Part shown: piece after piece, positions 3,037 through 41,238 of the stretch
Layout of the letters: each line of letters opens with the position of its first letter
Numbering within the stretch: position 1 is the stretch's first letter
Assembly (NCBI GenBank): GCA_027067555.1
Contig: JAMOVU010000177.1
Span: forward strand, 2,996-66,995
Length of the DNA: 64,000 bases
Direction: 5' to 3'
DNA from: Candidatus Aminicenantes bacterium
GTDB taxonomy: Bacteria; Acidobacteriota; Aminicenantia; JAMOAD01
Made by a program: the position numbers and the translations under genes
The notes under the pieces: model-generated
The model's database searches: none
Seen by the model: only the letters and a program-made list of their open reading frames with translations
Told to the model about the DNA's origin: nothing

Positions 3037-3910
3037 AGTGGTTAACGAATTATTAAAAAAACTGGTTAAAGAATCAATAACCTCTGTATTATCCATGCTT
3101 TTGGGAAAAGAGGTTGATTGCAAGGTGGATGATTTTGAAGAAGCAACGAAGGATGTTATTTTAAACAGGTTTGCAGAACACAAAAGAGTTGTTGTCTCAA
3201 TGTTTGAGCATAAGGAAAGTGGGGGAGAACTATACTTTATTCTCTCGGAAAAATTTGGAGGACTTGTTTCCAATTATATTATGGGAGTTGAGGAGGAGAA
3301 AGAAAGCATCGGAGATGAGGATATTGATGCACTTTCAGAAGTGGGAAATCAAGTTGCGAGCAATTTGGGCATAAGCCTTAAAGGTGAGCTTGATAAGGAT
3401 TTTAACTTTTCTCAGGCAAAAACAAATGTTATTGAGTTAGGTGAACTCTATGAGAAAATAAAAACAGATGAGGTGGATTTTTCAAATGTTGAAGTAAAAA
3501 TAGGGGATAAGAGTAACAATCTTATAATTGCAATGACAAAGGACTTAAGTGCTTATTTGGAAGGAGGGCACACAGAGAAGTCTCCTGCGGAAGTAAGTGG
3601 GGGTAGAGAGATGGAACCTATTCGTCCTTCTGAGCCTATGGATATTAATTCAAAAATTGAAATGCTTTTGGATGTTGAACTTCCTGTTGTTATAAGAATC
3701 GGAAAAACAGAGATGTATTTAAAGAATATTCTAAAATTAGGAACAGGTTCAATAATCCAGCTTGACAAAGTGGTAGACGAACCGGTAGAATTATTTGTTA
3801 ATGACAAATTAATTGCAAGAGGAGAAGTTGTTGTGGTAGATTCAAATTTTGCTTTAAGAATTACTGAGATAGTTAGTAAAGAGGAGAGAATCCGATCATT
3901 GGGAAAATAG
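3029..3910 (+). CDS. fliN: Flagellar motor switch protein FliN/FliY (CheC-like domain plus C-terminal FliN domain)
   Basis: C-terminal LLDVELPVVIRIG...GEVVVVDSNFALRITEI; CheC-like DALSEVGN motif. Confidence 0.88.
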   Translation: MNEVVNELLKKLVKESITSVLSMLLGKEVDCKVDDFEEATKDVILNRFAEHKRVVVSMFEHKESGGELYFILSEKFGGLVSNYIMGVEEEKESIGDEDIDALSEVGNQVASNLGISLKGELDKDFNFSQAKTNVIELGELYEKIKTDEVDFSNVEVKIGDKSNNLIIAMTKDLSAYLEGGHTEKSPAEVSGGREMEPIRPSEPMDINSKIEMLLDVELPVVIRIGKTEMYLKNILKLGTGSIIQLDKVVDEPVELFVNDKLIARGEVVVVDSNFALRITEIVSKEERIRSLGK

Positions 3911-3913
3911 AAA

Positions 3914-4741
3914 TTGAGTGTTTATAAAATCGAATATAATGATTTAAAAGAGCTGCAGATATTCTTGTACAAAAAAACCGGCTTATATTTTGAGGAAAGA
4001 AAGTTTGACTATTTGAGAATTAAACTTGAAAATCGTCTTGATAAGCTTAGAATTTATTCTTTGAAAGAATACTTAAATCTTTTGAAAACAGATCTAAAGG
4101 AAATCCAGCAACTAATAGATGAAATAACTATAAATGAAACCTATTTTATGCGTGAAATAGATGTTATCGATACATATTTTTCAAAGATAATTGGTTATAA
4201 TCATCACAATTTCTCAAGAATTAAAATTGTTTCCGCTGCTTGCTCTTCCGGAGAAGAGCCTTATAGTATTTCAATCTTGGTTATGGAAAAGTATCCGGCT
4301 TTGGTAGATAAACTTAATATATTTGCTTTTGATATTGATTCTAATGTAATTGAAAAGGCAAAAAAGGGTATTTATAGACAATTTTCATTAAGAGCGATAA
4401 ACAGAAGTACAATAGATAAATATTTTATAAAAAATAATGGTGAGTATAAAATAAATGATAAAATAAAAGAAACAGTTAGCTTTTACAATTTAAGTATTTT
4501 CGACCCTCGTGCTTACGAAATTATGGTAGGTAGTGATTTGATTTTAAGCAGAAATGTGCTAATATATTTTGGAATAGAATATAAGAGGAAAGCTGTGAAT
4601 CTCTTCTATGAATCCTTAAAAGATAATGGCTATTTAATTTTGGGTAGGAGCGAGTCGATTTACAATGTCAACAGTAAATTTGTTATGGTTCATTATCCTA
4701 ATGTTATCTTGTATAAAAAGGAGGTAAAGAATGGGAGTTAA
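3914..4741 (+). CDS. cheR: Chemotaxis protein-glutamate O-methyltransferase CheR
   Basis: TINETYFMRE, SAACSSGEEPYS, SRNVLIYF; TTG start. Confidence 0.93.
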   Translation: MSVYKIEYNDLKELQIFLYKKTGLYFEERKFDYLRIKLENRLDKLRIYSLKEYLNLLKTDLKEIQQLIDEITINETYFMREIDVIDTYFSKIIGYNHHNFSRIKIVSAACSSGEEPYSISILVMEKYPALVDKLNIFAFDIDSNVIEKAKKGIYRQFSLRAINRSTIDKYFIKNNGEYKINDKIKETVSFYNLSIFDPRAYEIMVGSDLILSRNVLIYFGIEYKRKAVNLFYESLKDNGYLILGRSESIYNVNSKFVMVHYPNVILYKKEVKNGS

Positions 4742-31855: not shown

Positions 31856-33073
31856 ATGAAAAACAAAATCTATAATTCCGCTTTTTATTATTATGATAAA
31901 GAGAAAATAGAAGAAGAACTCAGGAAAGGTTTCTTTTCTCTTAAATTTACAAAAGATGTTGAAGAGAGATTTAAAGAATTTCTTTTTATTAGAATAAGAG
32001 AATCAATGAGATTTTCAATACTTTTGGGGATTCTTATATATTTTATCTTTGGCCTTTTGGATTACTTTATTTATCCTGATTACTTTAGTAAATTATTTTT
32101 TATTCGTTATATTATAGGAGGTCCTCCAATTGTACTGGCAGGCTTTTTTTTGTTAAAAGCAAAAAAAGAGATTGAGATGCAGTTTCTTTTTAGCGTTGCT
32201 TTAATTGTGGCAGGATTGATGATAATTTTTATGATTTATCTTGTGCACGATCCAACTCATAGATATTATGCTGGGCTTACCGTTGTTTTGTTATATTCCT
32301 ATGTTGCTGTGGGTATTCGCTTCAGGTATACTTTTATCATTGGAAGTATATTAATAGGAACCTATTTTTTAAGCGCCATTTTTATTTTTTCCCCTGAGAC
32401 AAGTTTTTTAATAAGTAATATTTTCTTTTTAATCTTTTTTAATTTTATTGGGATGATTTCAAGTTTTTGGTATGAGAAAAATCAAAGAAAATTGTTCCTT
32501 CTCTCCTCTCTTGTAGCAATAGAAAGAAAAGAACTTAAAAGCACTAATGAGAGACTAAAAGAATTAACAAGAACAGACCCTTTGACAAAAATTGCAAATA
32601 GAAGATATTTTGAAGAATTCCTGAAGATAGAATGGAAGAGATCTATGAGAAAAAGAGAACCAATTTCTGCAATAATGGTTGATATCGATTACTTTAAAAA
32701 ATATAATGATTATTATGGACATCAAAAGGGGGACATAGCTTTATATAAAGTTGCTAAAAGCTTGAAGAATTTCTCAAGGAGGGCTGGTGATTTTGTTGCA
32801 AGGTTTGGGGGTGAAGAGTTTATTGTTATTTTAACAAACACTGAAAACAAAATTGCGGTTGAGATTGCTGAAAATATGAGAAAAGAGGTTATGAAACTTA
32901 AAATTAAGCATCCTCTCTCTGATATTGCAGATGTTTTAACAATAAGTCTTGGGGTGGCAACCATGATTCCCGAAAAAGAAATTAATTGTGAACTTTTGGT
33001 TAAAGCAGCGGATGAGGCTCTTTATAAAGCAAAAAAAACAGGAAGAAACAAGGTTGATAATGTGGTTATTTAA
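31856..33073 (+). CDS. Membrane-anchored diguanylate cyclase (GGDEF)
   Basis: About 6 TM helices, DPLTKIANRR, DIDYFKKYND, RAGD I-site, RFGGEEF active site. Confidence 0.93.
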   Translation: MKNKIYNSAFYYYDKEKIEEELRKGFFSLKFTKDVEERFKEFLFIRIRESMRFSILLGILIYFIFGLLDYFIYPDYFSKLFFIRYIIGGPPIVLAGFFLLKAKKEIEMQFLFSVALIVAGLMIIFMIYLVHDPTHRYYAGLTVVLLYSYVAVGIRFRYTFIIGSILIGTYFLSAIFIFSPETSFLISNIFFLIFFNFIGMISSFWYEKNQRKLFLLSSLVAIERKELKSTNERLKELTRTDPLTKIANRRYFEEFLKIEWKRSMRKREPISAIMVDIDYFKKYNDYYGHQKGDIALYKVAKSLKNFSRRAGDFVARFGGEEFIVILTNTENKIAVEIAENMRKEVMKLKIKHPLSDIADVLTISLGVATMIPEKEINCELLVKAADEALYKAKKTGRNKVDNVVI

Positions 33074-33074
33074 T

Positions 33075-34355
33075 TTAAGAGATTCCAAGTTTCTTCATTT
33101 TTCTCCAGAGAGTTGTTCTGTTAATGCCGAGTTTTTGGGCAGCTAATCTTTTATTCCACTTTACTTCTTCCAGAATCTTAAGTATTTTTTCTTTTTCTTT
33201 AGTATTTTGATTTATCTCTTTGTTCCCACTTTCTATTTTAATATACTCGGGAAGATGATCAATTTTTATTTCACCTTTTTCACAAAAAATATAAGCGTAC
33301 TCGAGAATATTCCTGAGTTCCCTAATGTTACCCGGATAATTGTAGGAAAGTAAAAGGTTAAGAGCATCTTTGGAAATCCCGGTTATTTTCTTATTGTGTA
33401 CAATGTTTAGTCTATATATAAAATAATCTATAAAGAGAGGTATATCTCCTTTTCTTTCCCTTAGAGGTGGGATTTTTACATTAACCACATTAAGTCTATA
33501 AAATAGATCTTCTCTGAAATTACCCTTTTTAACCTCTTCAGAAAGATTTTTATTTGTGGCTGAAATTACCCTGACATCAACTTTCTCCGCTCTTGTGCTT
33601 CCGAGAGGAATTATTTCCCCTGTCTCAACTACTCTCAAAAGTTTGGCTTGAATGTTTTGGCTCATCTCCCCAACTTCATCCAAAAAAATCGTTCCTTTAT
33701 TTGCCTGGACAAAAAGACCGGGTTTGTCCTTTTTCGCATCTGTAAAAGCTCCTTTTTTGTATCCGAAAAGTTCTGATTCAAGAAGCGTATCGGGAAGAGC
33801 TGCACAATTTATCTTTACAAAGGGTTTATTCTTTCTATCACTTAGATTTTTAATCGCAGTAGCAAAAACTTCTTTCCCAACTCCACTTTCTCCTTCTATC
33901 AATACAGGAACATTGCTTTTTGCAATTTTTGGCAATGCACTTATAATATTTAAAAGGTTTTTATCTCTTGTGATTATGTCTTCTAATTTAAAGCCCTTTT
34001 TTATTCTTCTTTCAAGTTCATACTCTCTTGTTATATCCTGAAAAATTTCAATCCAATTATCTCCAAACGGAAAAGCTTTTACTTTTATATATTTTTCTTC
34101 ATTTTCCTTATTTATAATGTTTACTATTATTTCTCTTTGTTCTTTCCCTTCTTTTAATGCTTTAATAGGGCAATTCTTTGTGCAGGCATCTGCTTTGAGT
34201 ATTTCAAAACAAAATTTGCCTACTGCTTCATTTTTTTTGAACCCTGTTATCTGTGATGCTGCCTTATTTATTTCTTTTATTTTAAATTCATTGTCTATTA
34301 TTAAAACACCTTCAAAAAGGTGATCCAATATATCTGAATAATTATCCTGTTTCAT
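33075..34355 (-). CDS. Sigma54-dependent transcriptional activator (PAS - AAA+ - Fis HTH)
   Basis: GESGVGKE Walker A, GAFTDA, FLDEVG Walker B, FREDLFYRLNV, LGINRTTLWRK. Confidence 0.95.
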   Translation of the reverse strand: MKQDNYSDILDHLFEGVLIIDNEFKIKEINKAASQITGFKKNEAVGKFCFEILKADACTKNCPIKALKEGKEQREIIVNIINKENEEKYIKVKAFPFGDNWIEIFQDITREYELERRIKKGFKLEDIITRDKNLLNIISALPKIAKSNVPVLIEGESGVGKEVFATAIKNLSDRKNKPFVKINCAALPDTLLESELFGYKKGAFTDAKKDKPGLFVQANKGTIFLDEVGEMSQNIQAKLLRVVETGEIIPLGSTRAEKVDVRVISATNKNLSEEVKKGNFREDLFYRLNVVNVKIPPLRERKGDIPLFIDYFIYRLNIVHNKKITGISKDALNLLLSYNYPGNIRELRNILEYAYIFCEKGEIKIDHLPEYIKIESGNKEINQNTKEKEKILKILEEVKWNKRLAAQKLGINRTTLWRKMKKLGIS

Positions 34356-34360
34356 GCTTT

Positions 34361-34389
34361 ATTTTAAATCAAATTTAGTTTTTTTGCAA
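34361..34389 (-). promoter_or_regulatory. Putative sigma70 promoter of the sigma54 activator gene (TTGCAA-17-TAAAAT), 5 nt before the ATG
   Basis: Minus-strand hexamers at 34389-34384 and 34366-34361; the -35 overlaps the first palindrome. Confidence 0.55.
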
Positions 34390-34436
34390 CATTGTGCAAC
34401 AAATGAAACATAATGTTTCGCAACATTGTTGCAACA
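34385..34436. promoter_or_regulatory. Cluster of inverted repeats, probable enhancer (UAS) for the sigma54 activator
   Basis: TGCAACATTGTGCA (34385-34398), GAAACAT-A-ATGTTTC (34405-34419), GCAACA-T-TGTTGC (34420-34432); about 85-135 bp upstream of the predicted sigma54 start. Confidence 0.65.
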
Positions 34437-34493
34437 AAATTTCGTGAGCTGGAAAAATTAAATAATTATAAGGGCTTGTGGAAATTTATAAAG

Positions 34494-34510
34494 TTGGCAC
34501 GAAAATTTAT
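34494..34510 (+). promoter_or_regulatory. Putative sigma54 -24/-12 promoter (perfect -24, degenerate -12)
   Basis: TTGGCACG-AAAA-TTTAT versus consensus TGGCACG-N4-TTGC; divergent from a bEBP gene. Confidence 0.55.
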
Positions 34511-34520
34511 ATCTAACAAT

Positions 34521-34937
34521 ATGAAATTAGCAGTAGCGGCTTTTAGAAATATAGTTGCTCCAAGATTGGATTTCTCAGAGCAACTTATTATATATGAAAT
34601 TGTAGATGGGAGAGTTATGGGAAAGAGTACTGTAAATCTTATACTTGGATATCCTATGGAGCTTTTGAGTGTTCTTAAATCTGAAAATATTAGTATAATA
34701 ATTTGCGGTGGAGGACCGCGGGGGTTTTTAAGGAATCTATTTTTTAATGGTATTGAAATACTAAATGGTGGCTTCATGGAACCTGATGTGGCAGTGGATT
34801 TGTTTCTCAAAGGTAAGATACCTTCCTTTTTTGGAAATGCGGCTTTTTATAATGGAGAGTGGCCGAGAAGAAGCAGAAGAGGGAAGAGAAAAGGCTTTGG
34901 GAAAAATAGAAAAAATTTAAATAAAGGGAGGAAATAA
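34521..34937 (+). CDS. NifB/NifX (dinitrogenase FeMo-cofactor biosynthesis-like) family protein
   Basis: MKLAVAAFRNIVAPRLDFS, IIICGG; the ORF-track start at 34413 lies inside the enhancer, so ATG 34521 is preferred. Confidence 0.7.
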   Translation: MKLAVAAFRNIVAPRLDFSEQLIIYEIVDGRVMGKSTVNLILGYPMELLSVLKSENISIIICGGGPRGFLRNLFFNGIEILNGGFMEPDVAVDLFLKGKIPSFFGNAAFYNGEWPRRSRRGKRKGFGKNRKNLNKGRK

Positions 34938-36289
34938 TGGCAAATAGGGAATTTGATGTTTTAGTTATTGGTGGAGGACCTGCCGGTATTATTACGGCTG
35001 TTACCTCAAAGACATATTATCCTGAAAAAAGCGTTGCTATTTTGAGGAGAGAAAAAAAAGTATTGGTTCCCTGTGGGATTCCCTATGTTTTGTATACTCT
35101 TGATTCTCCCGAAAAAAACATTATTCCAGATGATCCTATTTTAAAGAAAGGAATTGAGATTATTGTAGATTCGGTTAAGAAGGTTGACATTAAGGAGAAG
35201 GTAGCCTTTACGGAAAGTGGGGATAAGATTAAGTTTGAGAAAGTAGTTTTTGCAACAGGTTCTACGCCCACAGAACCTTCTTGGCTTGAAGGAAGAGATC
35301 TTGAAAATGTTTTTTATATTAAAAAGAATATTGATTATCTTAGAGATTTAAAAAGCAAACTTTCAAATTTTAAAAATATTGTAATAGTTGGTGGAGGTTT
35401 TATTGGTGCGGAGGTTGCCGACGAACTAAGAAAATATGGAGAAAAGAAAATCACTATTGTGGAAAAATTACCTCATATACTTTATCTTGCTTTTGATGAG
35501 GAGTGCTGTATTAAAGCAGAAGAGGAGCTTAAAAAGGGTGGTGTTGATTTAATTACAGGTGTAGGTGTCAAAAAGATAGAGGGTAAAGGCAAGGTTGAGA
35601 AGATAATTCTTGAGAATGGTAAGAGTATTGATGCTGACGCAGTTATTCTATCTTTGGGATACAAACCCAATGTGAAACTTGCAGCCGAGGCAGGAATAAG
35701 GCTTGGAGCTTCAGGGGCTATTTGGGTTGATGAATATTTGAGGACTGATTATGACCATGTTTTTGCTGTGGGTGATTGCGTAGAGAGAAAGGATTTTATA
35801 ACAAGAAGGATTAGTAAAATCATGCTTGCTTCAACGGCAACTTCAGAGGCAAGGATAGCCGGGGCAAATCTTTTTAAACTTCAAGTGGTTAAAACATTTA
35901 CGGGAACAATCGGAATCTTTTCCACTAAGATTGGTAACAATGCTTTTGGTTCAGCAGGTATTACAGAAGCAATGGCAAGAGAGTTAGGTTTTGATATTGT
36001 TATAGGAGAGGCTGAGAGTATTGATAGACATCCAGGATCTTTGCCCGGGGCTCACAAACAGAGAGTTAAACTTATTGCATCAAAAAAATCTGAAATAATA
36101 ATGGGAGCTCAAGTTTTTGGAGGAGATAGTGTGGGTGAGATTATCAATCTTTTAGGTTTTGCTATTCAGCAAAAAACCACAGCCGGTGGGCTTTTAATTT
36201 CTCAGATTGGAACACACCCACTTTTAACATCAGCTCCCACGACTTATCCAATAATAAAAGCTGCTGAAAGTTTAATTTCAAAAATTTAA
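34937..36289 (+). CDS. FAD-dependent pyridine nucleotide-disulfide oxidoreductase (CoA-disulfide reductase/NADH oxidase group)
   Basis: GGGPAG, redox Cys in VPCGIPY, ATGS, GGGFIGAE, VFAVGDC, dimerization domain. Confidence 0.9.
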   Translation: MANREFDVLVIGGGPAGIITAVTSKTYYPEKSVAILRREKKVLVPCGIPYVLYTLDSPEKNIIPDDPILKKGIEIIVDSVKKVDIKEKVAFTESGDKIKFEKVVFATGSTPTEPSWLEGRDLENVFYIKKNIDYLRDLKSKLSNFKNIVIVGGGFIGAEVADELRKYGEKKITIVEKLPHILYLAFDEECCIKAEEELKKGGVDLITGVGVKKIEGKGKVEKIILENGKSIDADAVILSLGYKPNVKLAAEAGIRLGASGAIWVDEYLRTDYDHVFAVGDCVERKDFITRRISKIMLASTATSEARIAGANLFKLQVVKTFTGTIGIFSTKIGNNAFGSAGITEAMARELGFDIVIGEAESIDRHPGSLPGAHKQRVKLIASKKSEIIMGAQVFGGDSVGEIINLLGFAIQQKTTAGGLLISQIGTHPLLTSAPTTYPIIKAAESLISKI

Positions 36290-36305
36290 ATAGAGGAGGT
36301 GTGAA

Positions 36306-36611
36306 ATGTTTAACTATATGAATCCTTATTATTATGGTTTTGGAGGCTTTGGTTGGGGGAGAGGTAGAGGTTTTGGAAGAGGCAGAGGTTTTGGAAGAGG
36401 CAGAGGTTTCGGAAGAGGCAGAGGCTTTGGCTTCGGCAGAGGGTTTGGTTATGGAGCAACACTTGGTTATTGCCCGTGGACTGGCCTTCCAAGAGGTTGG
36501 AGATGGATGGGGTACTATACTCCCTATAATATGCCTTATACAGGAGGGTTTAACTATCCGGTTCCTTATGCTTACAATACACCAACTCCAGTACAGGAGG
36601 AGAAAAAATGA
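36306..36611 (+). CDS. Small Gly/Arg/Tyr-rich protein (DUF5320-like)
   Basis: Strong SD AGGAGG; (GRGRGF)x4, GYCPWTGLPRGWRW; stop overlaps the next ATG. Confidence 0.75.
   Translation: MFNYMNPYYYGFGGFGWGRGRGFGRGRGFGRGRGFGRGRGFGFGRGFGYGATLGYCPWTGLPRGWRWMGYYTPYNMPYTGGFNYPVPYAYNTPTPVQEEKK
36357..36428 (+). repeat. 18-bp coding tandem repeat x4 (GRGRGF)
   Basis: ggRagaggYagaggYttY units with synonymous variation only. Confidence 0.9.
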
Positions 36612-37216
36612 GGATACTCATTACTTCATCAGGTCCTGATTTAAATTCTCCGGTGGATATGAGATTTGCAAGAGCACCTTATTTCATTGTGTATGATAGT
36701 GAGAATCCTGAAAACCCTGAAGTGATTCAAAATCCTTTTATGAATACTCCTTCCGGGGCTGGAGTTGTTGCAGCTCAATTTGTGGTGGAAAGAGGAGTGC
36801 AAGCAGTTGTTTCAGGTGCTTTCGGACCAAACTCTTCTATGATTCTAAGTTCGGCTGGTATTCAAATGATTACTGAGACAGGAGGCGTTTCTGTAAAAGA
36901 AGCTATTGATAAGGCGATAAGTGGGAATTATCCCCAAGGAGTTCCCCAGCAGGCAGCCATGCCAGCTTCTTATTTTCCTCAATACAACCCCTATGGATTT
37001 GGATGGGGATTTGGAAGAGGCTTCGGATGGGGAAGAGGCTTTGGAAGAGGCTGGGCTATGAATTGGGGAACTTTTCCTATAGGAACATATCCCCAAGTTT
37101 ACAATTTTGATGAAAAGAATTTTCTAAAAAATATGATAGATAATCTTAAATCTCAGCTAAATTACTATGAAAAAAGATTGGCAGAGATTGAAAAAAATAT
37201 TAAGGAGGAAAAATGA
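36608..37216 (+). CDS. NifB/NifX-family protein with GFGWGRG tract and C-terminal coiled coil
   Basis: VDMRFARAPYF, GAGVVAAQ, GAFGPN; FGWGFGRGFGWGRGFGRGW; LKSQLNYYEKRLAEIE. Confidence 0.85.
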   Translation: MRILITSSGPDLNSPVDMRFARAPYFIVYDSENPENPEVIQNPFMNTPSGAGVVAAQFVVERGVQAVVSGAFGPNSSMILSSAGIQMITETGGVSVKEAIDKAISGNYPQGVPQQAAMPASYFPQYNPYGFGWGFGRGFGWGRGFGRGWAMNWGTFPIGTYPQVYNFDEKNFLKNMIDNLKSQLNYYEKRLAEIEKNIKEEK

Positions 37217-37770
37217 AAATATTAGTAACTGCAAGCTCTGAAGATTTGAATGGTCCTGTGGATCCTCGTTTCGGAAGAGCAGCTTATTATGTGATTTTTG
37301 ATTCTGAAAACCCTGATGCTGTTCAGATAATTCCTAATCCCAATGCAGCTTCACCAAGTGGAGCGGGTATTGCAGCAGCTCAGTATGTTGCATCTCAAGG
37401 TGTTAACATAGTTGTTTCAGGATCTTTTGGCCCCAATGCCTCATCAGTACTTTCAGGCGCAGGTATCCAGATGGTTTCAGCACCTTCAGGAATGAGTGTA
37501 AGAGAAGCTTATGAGATGGCACTTCAAGGAAAGTTAGGTGCTGCTCCTGCGAATCCGAACGGACAGATGCCACCTTATCCGCCTCAAGGGGGATTTGGTG
37601 GACCGGGCTTCGGCGGAGGCGCAGGTTTTGGAGGCGGTTTCGGAGGTGGATTCGGAAGAGGCCGAGGCGGTGGTTTTGGTAGAGGCAGAGGCCGAGGAGG
37701 CGGTTTTGGAAAAGGTGGAGGAAGAGGCCAAGGCGGTGGCTTTGGCGGTGGTTTTGGTAGAGGCTGGTAG
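37213..37770 (+). CDS. NifB/NifX-family protein with ~60-aa Gly/Phe/Arg-rich tail
   Basis: VDPRFGRAAYY, GAGIAAAQ, GSFGPN; tail GGFGG/GRGRGGGFG. Confidence 0.85.
   Translation: MKILVTASSEDLNGPVDPRFGRAAYYVIFDSENPDAVQIIPNPNAASPSGAGIAAAQYVASQGVNIVVSGSFGPNASSVLSGAGIQMVSAPSGMSVREAYEMALQGKLGAAPANPNGQMPPYPPQGGFGGPGFGGGAGFGGGFGGGFGRGRGGGFGRGRGRGGGFGKGGGRGQGGGFGGGFGRGW
37588..37767 (+). repeat. Low-complexity GC-rich coding repeat (GGFGG/GRGRGG)
   Basis: Imperfect repeated units; locally far higher GC than the flanks. Confidence 0.8.
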
Positions 37771-37810
37771 TAAGTCTCTTTTCAAATAAAGCTTACCCTC
37801 CTTTGTGTGG

Positions 37811-37841
37811 ACGGAGCGGGCGAGCCCGCTCCGTTTTTTTT
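37811..37841 (+). terminator. Rho-independent terminator of the NifX operon
   Basis: Perfect 10-bp stem ACGGAGCGGG/CCCGCTCCGT, loop CGAG, then a T run. Confidence 0.92.
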
Positions 37842-37881
37842 ATTCTATTGAATTAATCTTTTCATTGATTTATATTATTTT

Positions 37882-38706
37882 ATGAAATATTTAATATTCA
37901 CAGATCTTGACGGAACATTGCTTGATTATGATACCTATGAATGGAAGGGAGCTGAAAAATCTCTAAACTACCTTAAAAAAAATAATTTTCCTATAATATT
38001 TATTACAAGTAAAACATTTGAAGAAACAAAACTTTTCAGAGAAGAAATGGGGTTAATTGATTATCCATTTGCCATTGAAAATGGAGGAGCTGTTTACTTT
38101 CCAAAAGTTTATGAGGATTTTTTAGATTGTAAATATAAAGTTAGCAAAGATGGGTTTTGTAAGGTAGAAATTGGAATGCATATAAATAATATTCTCCCTT
38201 TGCTTAGGGAAGCATCTAAGAGGTATGAAGTAAATGTGAAAACTATTTTTGATTTTTCCGATGAGGAGTTTGAAAGGATTTTGAATTTAAAAGGAGAAAT
38301 AGTAAAAAAAGTAAAAGAGAGAGAATATGATATTCCTTTTGTTTTAAAGAGTAATGAAAGTGATAAAGAGGAATTTTTTAAGGAATTAAAAGCTTTTGGA
38401 TTAAAAATTATAAAAGGCGGGCGTTTTTATCATTTATCCGGTGAATACGATAAGGGAATGGCTGCTGAGATTATTTATAAATTTTACAGAAATTTTTATA
38501 AAAATAGTGATTTAAAAACCATAGGTCTTGGTGATTCTGAGAATGATTTGCCAATGTTAAAATTTGTAGAGATTCCTGTTTTGGTCAGGAAAAAGAGTGG
38601 GGTTTATTCAGAAGAAATAAAAAAAGAAATTAAAGATATCTTTTTAACAAAAAAACCGGCTCCGGAAGGATGGAATGAAATATTTGAAAAATTGTTTTTA
38701 ATATAG
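37882..38706 (+). CDS. mpgP: Mannosyl/glucosyl-3-phosphoglycerate phosphatase (HAD IIB, MpgP/GpgP)
   Basis: FTDLDGTLLD, TSKTFEE, GGRFYHL, YDKG, LGDSENDLPML, PEGWNE. Confidence 0.88.
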   Translation: MKYLIFTDLDGTLLDYDTYEWKGAEKSLNYLKKNNFPIIFITSKTFEETKLFREEMGLIDYPFAIENGGAVYFPKVYEDFLDCKYKVSKDGFCKVEIGMHINNILPLLREASKRYEVNVKTIFDFSDEEFERILNLKGEIVKKVKEREYDIPFVLKSNESDKEEFFKELKAFGLKIIKGGRFYHLSGEYDKGMAAEIIYKFYRNFYKNSDLKTIGLGDSENDLPMLKFVEIPVLVRKKSGVYSEEIKKEIKDIFLTKKPAPEGWNEIFEKLFLI

Positions 38707-38758
38707 TAATATAAAAATGTAAAGACAATCCACGAAAAATCTTAATAGGAGGTGTGAA

Positions 38759-39967
38759 ATGTCGGATTTTTTTCAGTCGGGTAATATAACAACTATTAAT
38801 ATTTTAGGAGAAAAAGGCTCTGATATTATAGATTCTCACTTAATGAAATTTTCAAAAAGAAAGAAAACAGCAGTACTGATTCCTGTCCTTTACAGTGATT
38901 ACGTAAGGCCTGCAATGAAAAGGATACTTGAAATTATGAAGGAAATTAATTTTATTCATGAAGTTGTTTTATCTTTAGGCGGAGCATCAAGAGAAAAATT
39001 CGAGAAAGTGAAAGATGAAATAAAAGGACATCCCAGAAATATAACGGTTCTTTGGATGGATAATCCGAAAATTAAAGGTATGATATATGATCTGGAAAAG
39101 GCAAATCTTAAGATAGGACCTGAGGGAAAGGGAAAATCCTGTTGGACCGGTTTTGGTTATATTCTTGCAAAAGGTGAGGCTGACATAATCGCTCTTCACG
39201 ATTCTGATATAGAAACATATTCCAAAGATATGCTTGCGAGATTGATTTACCCACTTGTGAGCCCTCATTTACCGTTTGAATTTTCAAAAGGGTTTTATGC
39301 AAGATTTAGCAAAAAACTTCATGGAAGAGTGACAAGACTTTTTGTAATACCGTTTTTTAAAGCATTGTTAAAAGTTTTGGGACCGCATCCATTTATCTAC
39401 TATCTTAATAGTTTCAGGTATCCGCTTTCCGGGGAATTTGCTTTGAGAACCGGGCTTGCAAGAGTTATGAGATTTCCGGGAGATTGGGGTCTTGAAGTTA
39501 GCGTTCTCTATGAAGTTTACAGAAATGTCACCCTTAAGAGAATTACGCAGGTGGAACTTGCACAGAGGTATGATCATAAACATCAAAAGGTCTCGGAAGC
39601 TGATGCAAATGCGGGTTTGCATAAAATGACTATAGATATTGCAACAAATGTTTTAAAAAATATTGCAGCTGAGGGAGTCATAATTTCTGATGGCAATATA
39701 AGAGCGATCCAAAAAACATATTTAAGAATTGCTGAAGATATGATTTCAAGTTATCATGCAATAGCAATGATGAATGGTCTTTCTTTTGATAGGCATCAGG
39801 AAGAATCAATAGTGGAAACATTCTATAAAGCTCTAATACATTCGTCTGAGAAATTTCTTGAAGATCCTATGGGCGTTCAAATGCTTCCAAACTGGAACAG
39901 GATTACTTCAGCATATCCGAATTTTCTTGATAGATTAAAAAGATTGGTGGATAAAGATAATAAATAG
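38759..39967 (+). CDS. gpgS: Glucosyl-3-phosphoglycerate synthase-like glycosyltransferase (cyanobacterial/proteobacterial GpgS type)
   Basis: MSDFFQSGNITT, GKGKSCW, LHDSDI, KGFYAR, GRVTRLFV, RYPLSGEF, DWGLE, YDHKHQ; next to the phosphatase. Confidence 0.8.
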   Translation: MSDFFQSGNITTINILGEKGSDIIDSHLMKFSKRKKTAVLIPVLYSDYVRPAMKRILEIMKEINFIHEVVLSLGGASREKFEKVKDEIKGHPRNITVLWMDNPKIKGMIYDLEKANLKIGPEGKGKSCWTGFGYILAKGEADIIALHDSDIETYSKDMLARLIYPLVSPHLPFEFSKGFYARFSKKLHGRVTRLFVIPFFKALLKVLGPHPFIYYLNSFRYPLSGEFALRTGLARVMRFPGDWGLEVSVLYEVYRNVTLKRITQVELAQRYDHKHQKVSEADANAGLHKMTIDIATNVLKNIAAEGVIISDGNIRAIQKTYLRIAEDMISSYHAIAMMNGLSFDRHQEESIVETFYKALIHSSEKFLEDPMGVQMLPNWNRITSAYPNFLDRLKRLVDKDNK

Positions 39968-39975
39968 GAGGTAAA

Positions 39976-41238
39976 ATGGGTTTTAAACCTTATGAAACAG
40001 CCTTAAGAGATGAGGCCATAAAATGGATTAAAGAACAGCAAAAAGTTGATATACTTGTAGGTGTTCCATGTTATAATAATGAAGATACAATAAGATTTGT
40101 TGTTGAGCAAATAGGAGAGGGATTAAGTAAATATTTCCCGGAGCTTAGAAAGGCTATTTTTATTTCAGACGGAGGTTCTACTGATAATACAAGAGAGAAT
40201 GCTCTTAAGGCCAAAATTCCCTCTGATGTTTCAGAGATCGTTACAATCTACCGAGGAATTCCCGGGAAAGGTACTTCTTTAAGAGCAATCTTTGAAGTTG
40301 CAAAGCATCTTGAAGTGAAGGCAATAGCGGTTTTTGATTCTGATTTAAGAAGCATAAGACCGGAGTGGATTAAGTATGTTGTCGAGCCTGTTTTAAATGA
40401 AGATACTCACTTTGTTGCACCGTATTATAAAAGATATAAATATGATGGTACCATAACTAATATGATTGTTTATCCAACCACAAGAGCTCTTTACGGAAAG
40501 AGAGTAAGACAGCCAATCGGAGGAGATTTCGGATTTTCAGGAAAATTGGCAAAACTTTATTCTGATAAGGATGTTTGGATGACCGATATAGCAAAATTTG
40601 GTATTGATATCTGGATGACAACCGTTGCTATAAATGAAGTGAAAAGTATTTCTCAAGTTAATCTTGGCGTAAAAATCCACAATGCAAAGGATCCTGCAGC
40701 TGATCTTGTCCACATGTTTATTCAGGTGATTTCAACCATGTTTGACCTTATGAATGAGTATGAAGATAATTGGACTAAAATAGAAAAAAGTGTTGATATT
40801 CCTCTTTTGAAGGGGGTTGAGGATAGTCCTGAACCAACTGAAATAAAGGTGAATTTGAAAAAGTTAGAGGATGAGTTTATTGATGGTTTTGAGCAATTTT
40901 CTTCACTTTACAGAGATATTCTTTCTCCTGAAAGTTATAATGGCCTTCGCAAAGTTTATGAAAATAAAAAGAAGGGAAATGGAATAAATATTAATTCAGA
41001 GCTTTGGAGTTTAATTGTTTATGATGCTGCTTATACTTATCATAATTGGTCAAGGAACAGAAAAAAGTTAATAAATATTCTCTCTCCTCTCTATTTTGGA
41101 AGAACAGCCTCTTTTATATCTGAAACCATAGACATGAATTGGGAGCAGGCTGAAAAAGTAATAGAGAAACAGGCTGAGGTTTTTGAGAAAAACAAAAAAT
41201 ATTTGAAAAACAGAATTTTGCAGTGGAAAGAATTTTGA
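39976..41238 (+). CDS. Single-step glycosylglycerate synthase-like GT2/GT78 enzyme (Ggs/Mgs-like)
   Basis: VGVPCYNNEDTI, SDGGSTD, GKGTSLR, FDSDLRSI, RQPIGGDFG, FGIDIWMT. Confidence 0.75.
   Translation: MGFKPYETALRDEAIKWIKEQQKVDILVGVPCYNNEDTIRFVVEQIGEGLSKYFPELRKAIFISDGGSTDNTRENALKAKIPSDVSEIVTIYRGIPGKGTSLRAIFEVAKHLEVKAIAVFDSDLRSIRPEWIKYVVEPVLNEDTHFVAPYYKRYKYDGTITNMIVYPTTRALYGKRVRQPIGGDFGFSGKLAKLYSDKDVWMTDIAKFGIDIWMTTVAINEVKSISQVNLGVKIHNAKDPAADLVHMFIQVISTMFDLMNEYEDNWTKIEKSVDIPLLKGVEDSPEPTEIKVNLKKLEDEFIDGFEQFSSLYRDILSPESYNGLRKVYENKKKGNGININSELWSLIVYDAAYTYHNWSRNRKKLINILSPLYFGRTASFISETIDMNWEQAEKVIEKQAEVFEKNKKYLKNRILQWKEF

Follow-up and report, generated by a model that had tools for sequence, protein, structure and literature searches.

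The window analyzed here, a 64-kb stretch of contig JAMOVU010000177.1 of Candidatus Aminicenantes bacterium, was found to carry at positions 33075–37841 a module made up of a divergent activator gene with PAS, AAA+ and helix-turn-helix (HTH) domains, four enhancer half-sites, a TGGCAC −24 box, five coupled genes and a strong terminator. Judged by its sequence, this unit belongs to the orange protein (ORP) gene system known from strict anaerobes, of which it is a compact form. An earlier interpretation made from the DNA alone (the sequence-only reading) had described a divergent bacterial enhancer-binding protein (bEBP) gene, enhancer palindromes, a −24 box, five coupled genes and a terminator, all of which are present where it placed them. 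Its description of the whole as a complete, bEBP-controlled module of the sigma-54 type is supported by the protein domains, the enhancer dyads, the TGGCAC element, the operon and the terminator. The features of the module are as follows:

33075–34355, minus strand: OrpR-type sigma-54 enhancer-binding protein, 426 aa (Pfam PAS_9, Sigma54_activat with E=3.9e-69, AAA_lid_14 and HTH_8)
34361–34389, minus strand: putative sigma-70-like promoter of the activator gene, TTGCAA-17-TAAAAT (consensus scan)
34382–34401, no strand assigned: putative enhancer (upstream activating sequence) dyad 1, TTTTGCAACA + TTGTGCAACA, at about −130 from the predicted start
34416–34436, no strand assigned: putative enhancer dyad 2, TTTCGCAACA + TGTTGCAACA, with the palindrome GCAACA-T-TGTTGC, at about −95
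34495–34510, plus strand: sigma-54-type promoter, TGGCAC (−24 box, 34495–34500), five bases, then TTTAT in place of TTGCW
34521–34937, plus strand: NifX-fold protein 1 (predicted fold), 138 aa, one conserved Cys (IICGGG), basic tail RRSRRGKRKGFGKNRKNLNKGRK (isoelectric point, pI, of the tail 12)
34937–36289, plus strand: single-Cys FAD/NAD(P)H disulfide-reductase-family enzyme of the NSR/CoADR/Nox group (Pfam), 450 aa, C46 (PCGIPY)
36306–36611, plus strand: small Gly/Arg/aromatic mini-protein (recognized by conservation), 101 aa, pI 10.2, (GRGRGF)n repeats, one-Cys motif GYCPWTGLPRGWRWM
36608–37216, plus strand: NifX-domain protein 2 (Pfam), 202 aa, Pro/aromatic linker, GFGWGFGRGFGWGRGFGRGW tract, DUF5320 C-terminal coiled coil
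37213–37770, plus strand: IssA-like NifX-domain protein 3 (Pfam and tail composition), 185 aa, PF02579 domain, Pro-rich linker, 77-residue tail
37809–37846, plus strand: intrinsic terminator ending the operon, hairpin (37809–37836) having a 12-bp stem with 8 GC pairs and a loop of 4, T-run

The five plus-strand genes are closely packed, their junctions being, in order, a 1-nt overlap, a 16-nt gap and two 4-nt overlaps (both ATGA). A GGAGG Shine-Dalgarno sequence is found before genes 2–5, and gene 1 alone is without one. The start of gene 1 was placed at the ATG at 34521, giving a protein of 138 aa, because the relatives described below all begin at MK[LV]AV as the window protein does, and more distant homologues that have Shine-Dalgarno sites use the same Met. 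A longer first open reading frame (ORF) of 174 aa (34413–34937) was rejected as it spans the enhancer and crosses the promoter, so that the start is corrected from 34413 to 34521. The G+C content rises to 42% at 36–38 kb compared with ~32% elsewhere in the window, which is due to Gly/Arg codon repeats that were also detected by Tandem Repeats Finder. An Rfam scan of the window returned three tRNAs and nothing else. The public sequencing runs matching the stretch are DNA runs from hydrothermal vent metagenomes, with no RNA run among them.

The six-gene module was found to be conserved in three other genomes. One of these (L084) has the same flanks as the window, a second (L086) has different flanks (ZnuABC and ProRS), and in the third (L085) the genes immediately after the module are NifX, two MinD-ferredoxin ATPases (Orp3/Orp4-like), FeS_assembly_P and another NifX. 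The flavoenzymes of the three relatives are 93, 79, and 74% identical to that of the window.

The activator has an N-terminal PAS domain, a central sigma-54-interaction AAA+ domain and a C-terminal Fis-type HTH according to Pfam, and its PAS region (KFCFEILKADACTKNCP) holds the three cysteines to which attention had been drawn earlier, namely C49, C58, and C62. The motif C49-x-E51-x6-C58-x3-C62 has the same spacing as C52/(D/E)54/C61/C65 of OrpR from Desulfovibrio vulgaris Hildenborough, the organism whose OrpR, orp operons and ORP complex served for comparison (PMC8359166, PMC3897727, PMC6345978, PMC4641369). The D. vulgaris protein (DVU2106) senses redox potential via a [4Fe-4S] cluster in its PAS domain, for which C52, C61, and C65 are needed, an Asp/Glu being conserved at position 54; it turns on the orp operons only under reducing conditions and becomes inactive when the redox potential rises (PMC8359166). 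The two activators share the PAS, AAA+ and HTH layout, the C-x-[DE]-x6-C-x3-C triad and the sigma-54 contact loop GAFTDA, a rare variant which has been tabulated for DVU2106 (PMC4641369) and which is present in the window activator and in all three of its module relatives. On these sequence features the activator is an OrpR-type bEBP. The Cys motif is also kept in seven linked bEBPs (L084–L086, L076, L013, L014, and L071), and activators with this motif adjoin ORP-type genes in contigs of Geopsychrobacteraceae, Desulfobacterales, Desulfosalsimonadaceae and Calditrichia.

By analogy with D. vulgaris OrpR, C49, C58, and C62 most likely carry a redox-sensitive [4Fe-4S] cluster in the PAS domain, E51 being close by. 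The module had been proposed to be induced by redox state, sulfur or metal. The redox part of this proposal is retained, as control is probably by low potential through an Fe-S PAS domain, with the system ON when reduced (a direction extrapolated from D. vulgaris), whereas induction by sulfur or metal is less likely. The activator gene itself appears to have a sigma-70-like promoter, the −35 hexamer of which overlaps enhancer site 1 and the −10 hexamer of which ends 5 nt before the activator ATG (34353–34355). Since the −35 hexamer lies over enhancer dyad 1, the activator could repress its own promoter.

Upstream of the operon, T[TG]T[TGC]GCAACA occurs four times, with copies beginning at 34382, 34392, 34416, and 34427. 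These half-sites form two dyads one helical turn apart, the outer parts of which make a 17-nt inverted repeat, and together they span −85 to −140. The arrangement TGCAAC-N4-TGCAAC occurs once in the 64 kb and in none of 100 shuffles, and it is kept in L084 and L086. An activator gene beside a sigma-54-type promoter with upstream repeated sites is also the arrangement of the D. vulgaris orp system, although that system has two divergent target operons and the window has one. The TGGCAC element is invariant in the window and the three relatives even though the surrounding spacer has diverged. Gene 1 homologues in Desulfobacterota loci lie behind canonical TGGCAC-N5-ATGCA promoters with TTGCA-N4-TGCAA sites; the circuit is therefore conserved across phyla, with a deviant −12 element in this lineage. 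Transcription of the operon would depend on sigma-54. No RpoN box was found in the window.

The distance from TGGCAC to the ATG is exactly 20 nt in all four genomes, which sets the predicted +1 on the A of the ATG at 34521. Because of this fixed spacing, and because gene 1 has no Shine-Dalgarno sequence, the operon mRNA is probably leaderless. A literature search on leaderless sigma-54 transcripts returned nothing that addresses them at title or abstract level. The activator gene may also be leaderless, given that TAAAAT ends 5 nt before its ATG and that no Shine-Dalgarno site is present. Elsewhere in the window, ~9 of 37 first-in-unit genes (from 63 crude gene calls) have no Shine-Dalgarno sequence and carry a TAnnnT hexamer 4–8 nt before the start, the HAD gene at 37882 being an example, and by this crude count leaderless mRNAs may be common in the organism.

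Three of the four small proteins of the operon had been described as NifX-like. This holds for proteins 2 and 3, whose PF02579 domains are both above the Pfam threshold (E ~1e-18); protein 1 qualifies only by predicted fold and by a match to MrpORP, as it falls below the threshold of the Pfam NifX family (E=0.035). Protein 1 matches the C-terminal (PF02579-type) domain of MrpORP with E=1.2e-5, and its AlphaFold model (pLDDT 79) has IPR003731 structures as all of its top 15 fold matches in the PDB, including PH0822, MJ0327, TM1290, MTH1175, ORP and NafY. According to this model protein 1 has a NifX fold. In other phyla, its orthologues are encoded by the gene that comes first after an OrpR-type activator. 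Protein 2 carries a Nitro_FeMo-Co domain (E=8.5e-19), a GFGWGRGFGRGW tract and then a coiled coil which corresponds to profile positions 32–99 (the C-terminal two thirds) of DUF5320 (E=6.4e-12). The best solved relatives of protein 3 are MTH1175 (2.8e-17) and Desulfovibrio gigas ORP 2wfb (6.5e-17), which score nearly equally. Its 77-residue tail contains 41 Gly, 8 Arg/Lys, 11 aromatic and 7 Pro residues, no acidic residue, and has a pI of 12. Among 110 homologues of protein 3, 65 have a length of at least 140 aa, and most of those possess such a tail or a DUF5320 domain. As in the D. vulgaris orp system, the targets are PF02579 (Orp8-like) and DUF5320-type proteins; in the window, unlike in D. 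vulgaris, the NifX-fold proteins have long cationic tails.

The Pfam family name Nitro_FeMo-Co would point to maturation of the nitrogenase cofactor, the true NifX/NafY function. The structures nearest to the window proteins are MTH1175, ORP, PH0822 and MJ0327, NafY and NifX ranking below them, and the same module is found in many non-diazotroph contexts. None of the large ORFs of the window is of nitrogenase type, which agrees, within the scope of that check, with the earlier statement that nitrogenase genes are missing. A role in nitrogenase maturation is accordingly considered extremely improbable and was rejected on the basis of the nearest structures and the large ORFs.

The mini-protein encoded by gene 3 has no Pfam or NCBIfam family match, yet it is kept in L084, L085, and L086 together with its GYCPWTGLPRGWRWM motif. 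The style of its repeats is that of the middle part of canonical DUF5320 proteins, and its DNA carries an 18-nt tandem repeat (Tandem Repeats Finder). An acidic ORF in an alternative frame (36334–36639) was rejected as a shadow of the Gly/Arg repeats, since conservation is seen in the Gly/Arg frame only. The public gene call for the mini-protein of L084 (7397–7630) is in the wrong frame and gives an acidic "EAEALAEAEAL" product, the Gly/Arg frame being intact and conserved there.

All four small proteins thus contain cationic stretches and few or no cysteines. In this respect they resemble IssA (PF2025) of Pyrococcus furiosus, a thioferrate iron-sulfur storage protein whose tail has been proposed to wrap anionic thioferrate, and MTH1175 is of IssA type according to the same work (PMC5524996). 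The likeness lies in the architecture: after the IPR003731 domain comes a stretch rich in proline, and after that a disordered tail which is cationic, aromatic and rich in glycine, has a high pI and contains few cysteines or none. The settings are similar too, in that the source of the window is a hydrothermal vent metagenome, a sulfidic and iron-rich habitat. The window system differs in being bacterial, in having three paralogues and a free tail-like mini-protein, and in the DUF5320 coiled coil borne by one of the paralogues. Glycine is more abundant in the tail of protein 3, where it accounts for 41 of 77 residues compared with 15 of 70, and control would be through an OrpR-type sigma-54 activator and not through an archaeal sulfur response. 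The function of NifX-like proteins from non-diazotrophs had been called unknown earlier; the system is not without precedent, because the OrpR Cys triad and GAFTDA loop have been published and a tailed NifX fold is the architecture of IssA. Literature searches on DUF5320, and on DUF134 with NifX, returned nothing relevant.

Gly/Arg/aromatic tracts on four consecutive proteins could also be read as a condensate scaffold, in which RGG/aromatic low-complexity tracts phase-separate for a purpose independent of metal sulfide, such as the organization of RNA or enzymes. RGG/aromatic tracts are classic drivers of condensation. Against this, the tracts are attached to, or encoded beside, folds of Fe-S-cluster carriers, the proteins bearing them are under the common control of an Fe-S redox sensor and, in relatives, are linked to Fe-S ATPases, and IssA, the one studied protein of such architecture, assembles via bound thioferrate. 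The scaffold explanation is therefore regarded as very improbable.

The enzyme encoded by gene 2 has the two-Rossmann FAD/NAD(P)H fold with a dimerization domain (Pfam Pyr_redox_2, 3.5e-60, and Pyr_redox_dim). Its best solved relative is the CoADR of Pyrococcus horikoshii (4fx9, E=1e-54). The redox Cys that had been recognized in PCGIPY is retained: C46 aligns with the catalytic C48 of that enzyme and is invariant in 28 homologues. Scores for the CoADR equivalog families are far below their cut-offs (231 compared with 578.8 bits for TIGR03385, and 214 compared with 458 for NF007123). The enzymes used for comparison were Thermotoga maritima TM0379 and Thermococcus kodakarensis TK1481, with PF1186 and P. 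horikoshii CoADR as more distant members (PMC9431562, PMC6026696). The window enzyme is 46.7% identical to the NSR TM0379 over 443 residues (full length; E=7e-142), the TM0379 sequence being taken from a metagenome contig (L088) which carries all four TM0379 primers published in PMC9431562. TM0379 reduces polysulfide or thiosulfate with NAD(P)H and is stimulated by CoA (PMC9431562). The window enzyme is like the NSR-type reductases in being a homodimer-type FAD/NAD(P)H enzyme of ~450 aa with a single redox Cys in PCGIPY, and unlike them in scoring below the NCBIfam CoADR equivalog thresholds and in lying inside an Fe-S carrier operon, not standing alone.

A defence against O2 or peroxide has to be weighed at this point, with the flavoenzyme as an NADH oxidase removing O2, the NifX-fold proteins holding or repairing Fe-S clusters, and the activator ON when oxidized. 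Close homologues of the flavoenzyme are named "NADH oxidase" in their sources, such enzymes are common in anaerobes, the related TK1481, of the same subfamily, also has NAD(P)H oxidase activity (PMC9431562), and the activator would indeed sense redox state. The published OrpR is active when reduced and inactive as the redox potential rises, which is the opposite of what defence against O2 would need. Furthermore, the closest characterized relative found is a polysulfide/thiosulfate reductase, and the conserved partners of the flavoenzyme are carriers of ORP/IssA type and not peroxidases or rubrerythrins. This explanation is held to be quite unlikely.

The genomic company of the flavoenzyme was surveyed with a profile of its family against species-representative genomes, which gave 80 loci with matches 47–58% identical, and 83 loci with the three module loci added. 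NifX-fold, MinD-ferredoxin, DUF5320 and DUF134 genes were counted as ORP-type genes. At least one such gene lies within 10 kb in 39 of the 83 loci, which belong to both Bacteria and Archaea. The nearest one is within 1 kb at 23 of these 39 linked loci and on the same strand in 36 of them. In a Geopsychrobacteraceae locus (L076) the order is an OrpR-type bEBP, a NifX1-like gene, DUF5320, NifX, two MinD-Fer4, NifX, NifU_N-Mrp and the flavoenzyme, and in a Bacteroidota locus (L028) it is DUF134, DUF5320, NifX, two MinD-Fer4, NifX, the flavoenzyme, DUF4405 and CGGC. In L028 (11381–12742) the products encoded after the flavoenzyme are a DUF4405 membrane protein and a CGGC-domain protein.

The recurrence that the sequence-only reading had put forward for a neighbourhood survey is thus seen, both in the three module genomes and in the 39 linked loci. 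Its view of the flavoenzyme as a stand-in for the usual MinD-like/ferredoxin ATPases was not upheld. Because ATPases and flavoenzyme occur together in L085 and in the Geopsychrobacteraceae and Bacteroidota clusters, the flavoenzyme is best described as an additional recurrent member and not as a substitute for the ATPases.

In the window itself, ATPases of the Orp3/Orp4/Orp9 type were found neither in the operon nor in the rest of the 64 kb. An Mrp/NBP35 protein with a C-terminal PF02579 domain (Orp9/MrpORP) was likewise not found, as NF041136 was matched by its PF02579 part only, with 24–27 bits compared with a cut-off of 450. A ParA/MinD-type ATPase without the ferredoxin insert is encoded at 433–1305 on the plus strand, with a CheB methylesterase encoded nearby; it is probably FlhG/MinD-like and not a homologue of Orp3/Orp4. 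The window operon consequently differs from the D. vulgaris orp operons in being without MinD-ferredoxin ATPases and without Mrp(ORP), and in having an NSR/CoADR-type flavoenzyme embedded in it; Orp3/Orp4-like ATPases are a point of likeness only through the close relative L085.

These layouts bear on the canonical ORP role, according to which the NifX-fold proteins would bind a Mo(W)/Cu-sulfide cluster and act, with ATPases encoded elsewhere, in a division-linked process, the flavoenzyme being a mere co-expressed redox helper. Protein 3 matches D. gigas ORP almost as well as MTH1175, the regulator is of OrpR type, loss of OrpR leads to morphological defects in D. vulgaris, and in L085 ATPases adjoin the module. 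This role is nevertheless judged unlikely, considering that the operon and the window are free of such ATPases, that long polycationic tails are of IssA type and have not been described for Orp8, and that the flavoenzyme is translationally coupled within the operon and recurs in such clusters.

On balance, it is probable, though by no means secure, that the window holds an orp-type module which is switched on in a reduced cell, yields polycationic proteins that carry anionic iron-sulfide and includes a flavoenzyme that supplies sulfide or reducing power. The earlier proposal of a metal-cluster handling system is supported in the form that the module probably handles metal-sulfur material. Extrapolating from D. 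vulgaris OrpR, in a reduced cell the activator bound at the two TGCAAC dyads would drive sigma-54 RNA polymerase from the TGGCAC promoter, and when the redox potential rises the PAS cluster would degrade and transcription would stop. The transcript would start at the A of the first ATG and be leaderless. The NifX-fold (IPR003731) domains would then nucleate anionic iron-sulfide, in the form of thioferrate-like chains or cluster fragments, as has been proposed for IssA, and its wrapping and bundling would fall to the tails, the mini-protein and the DUF5320 coiled coil. With NAD(P)H and its single Cys, the co-translated flavoenzyme of the NSR/polysulfide-reductase type may generate sulfide for loading by the reduction of sulfane sulfur (polysulfide, persulfide or thiosulfate). 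As an alternative for this step, it may supply a thiol or reductant which releases Fe-S fragments.

Several observations weigh against this interpretation. The −12 element lacks the near-invariant GC, reading TTTAT in the window and TTGAT or TTGTT in the relatives. The TGCAAC repeats differ from the D. vulgaris OrpR palindrome GGGCGYRTTTTGCGCCC, although a different activator site is to be expected in a distant lineage of low G+C content; these two differences, together with the probably leaderless mRNA, also set the window apart from the D. vulgaris orp system. To these are added the lack of Orp3/Orp4/Orp9-type ATPases and the oxidase activity of TK1481, both described above. In D. vulgaris the cluster bound by the ORP protein is of the Mo/Cu-sulfide kind, and the ORP complex has been tied to cell division and not to storage. 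Finally, a flavoenzyme 73% identical to that of the window stands alone without the module, and another, 58% identical (L003), lies among hydrogenase and NfnAB-like genes, from which it follows that the flavoenzyme is not dedicated to ORP clusters. In L003 the gene has NfnAB/sulfide-dehydrogenase-like genes on one side and, on the other, a cytoplasmic NiFe hydrogenase accompanied by a HycI protease, a second context which looks recurrent and which also points to NAD(P)H/sulfur redox chemistry.

A more specific suggestion can be made only tentatively, namely that the NSR/CoADR-type flavoenzyme could be the missing physiological partner of the IssA/ORP-type carriers. With NAD(P)H and its single Cys it could cleave sulfane or persulfide bonds, or keep a thiol such as CoA reduced, and in this way either feed sulfide into thioferrate-like iron-sulfide stores wrapped by polycations or release Fe-S fragments from them by reduction. 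Thioferrate bound to IssA can be mobilized in vitro by dithiothreitol (DTT), and the authors of that study expect an unidentified cellular thiol or reductant to act in its place (PMC5524996).

The genes flanking the module touch on other functions. A membrane GGDEF diguanylate cyclase is encoded at 31856–33073 on the plus strand, convergent on the activator gene, the two stop codons being 1 nt apart. In L084, the 93% relative, the same gene is broken into short GGDEF fragments (3518–4139), so that it is probably undergoing decay in that genome. Immediately after the module (37882–41238, plus strand) lies a cluster of the compatible-solute type, with a HAD phosphatase, a glucosyl-3-phosphoglycerate synthase homologue (NF040724, E=1e-100, yet below the cut-off) and a GT2 protein with a mannosylglycerate-synthase-like domain. 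Such a cluster fits a vent organism.

The OrpR regulator type, the ORP cluster and IssA have already been published. For the embedded NSR-type flavoenzyme, its recurrence in ORP-type clusters and the ATPase-free layout, literature searches gave no earlier mention. ORP-type clusters are widespread in strict anaerobes and their cellular job is unsettled, and it was IssA that showed that tailed NifX-fold proteins can store thioferrate. The module of the window is minimal and self-contained, in that besides its redox sensor it encodes three carriers with tails, one free tail-like protein and a flavoenzyme of the sulfur-reductase type but no ATPases. It suggests a small genetic unit for heterologous work, and its fixed promoter-to-ATG spacing makes it a clean candidate for leaderless sigma-54 transcription. 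In this lineage the operon would further provide a rare example of a sigma-54 promoter giving rise to a leaderless mRNA. If the flavoenzyme is indeed the missing partner, it would do for IssA-type stores what DTT does in vitro. Since ORP-type clusters containing the enzyme occur in many phyla of both Bacteria and Archaea, orp clusters would then be a redox-gated iron-sulfide buffer, which would give a concrete biochemical role to a system whose function has been open since 2011.

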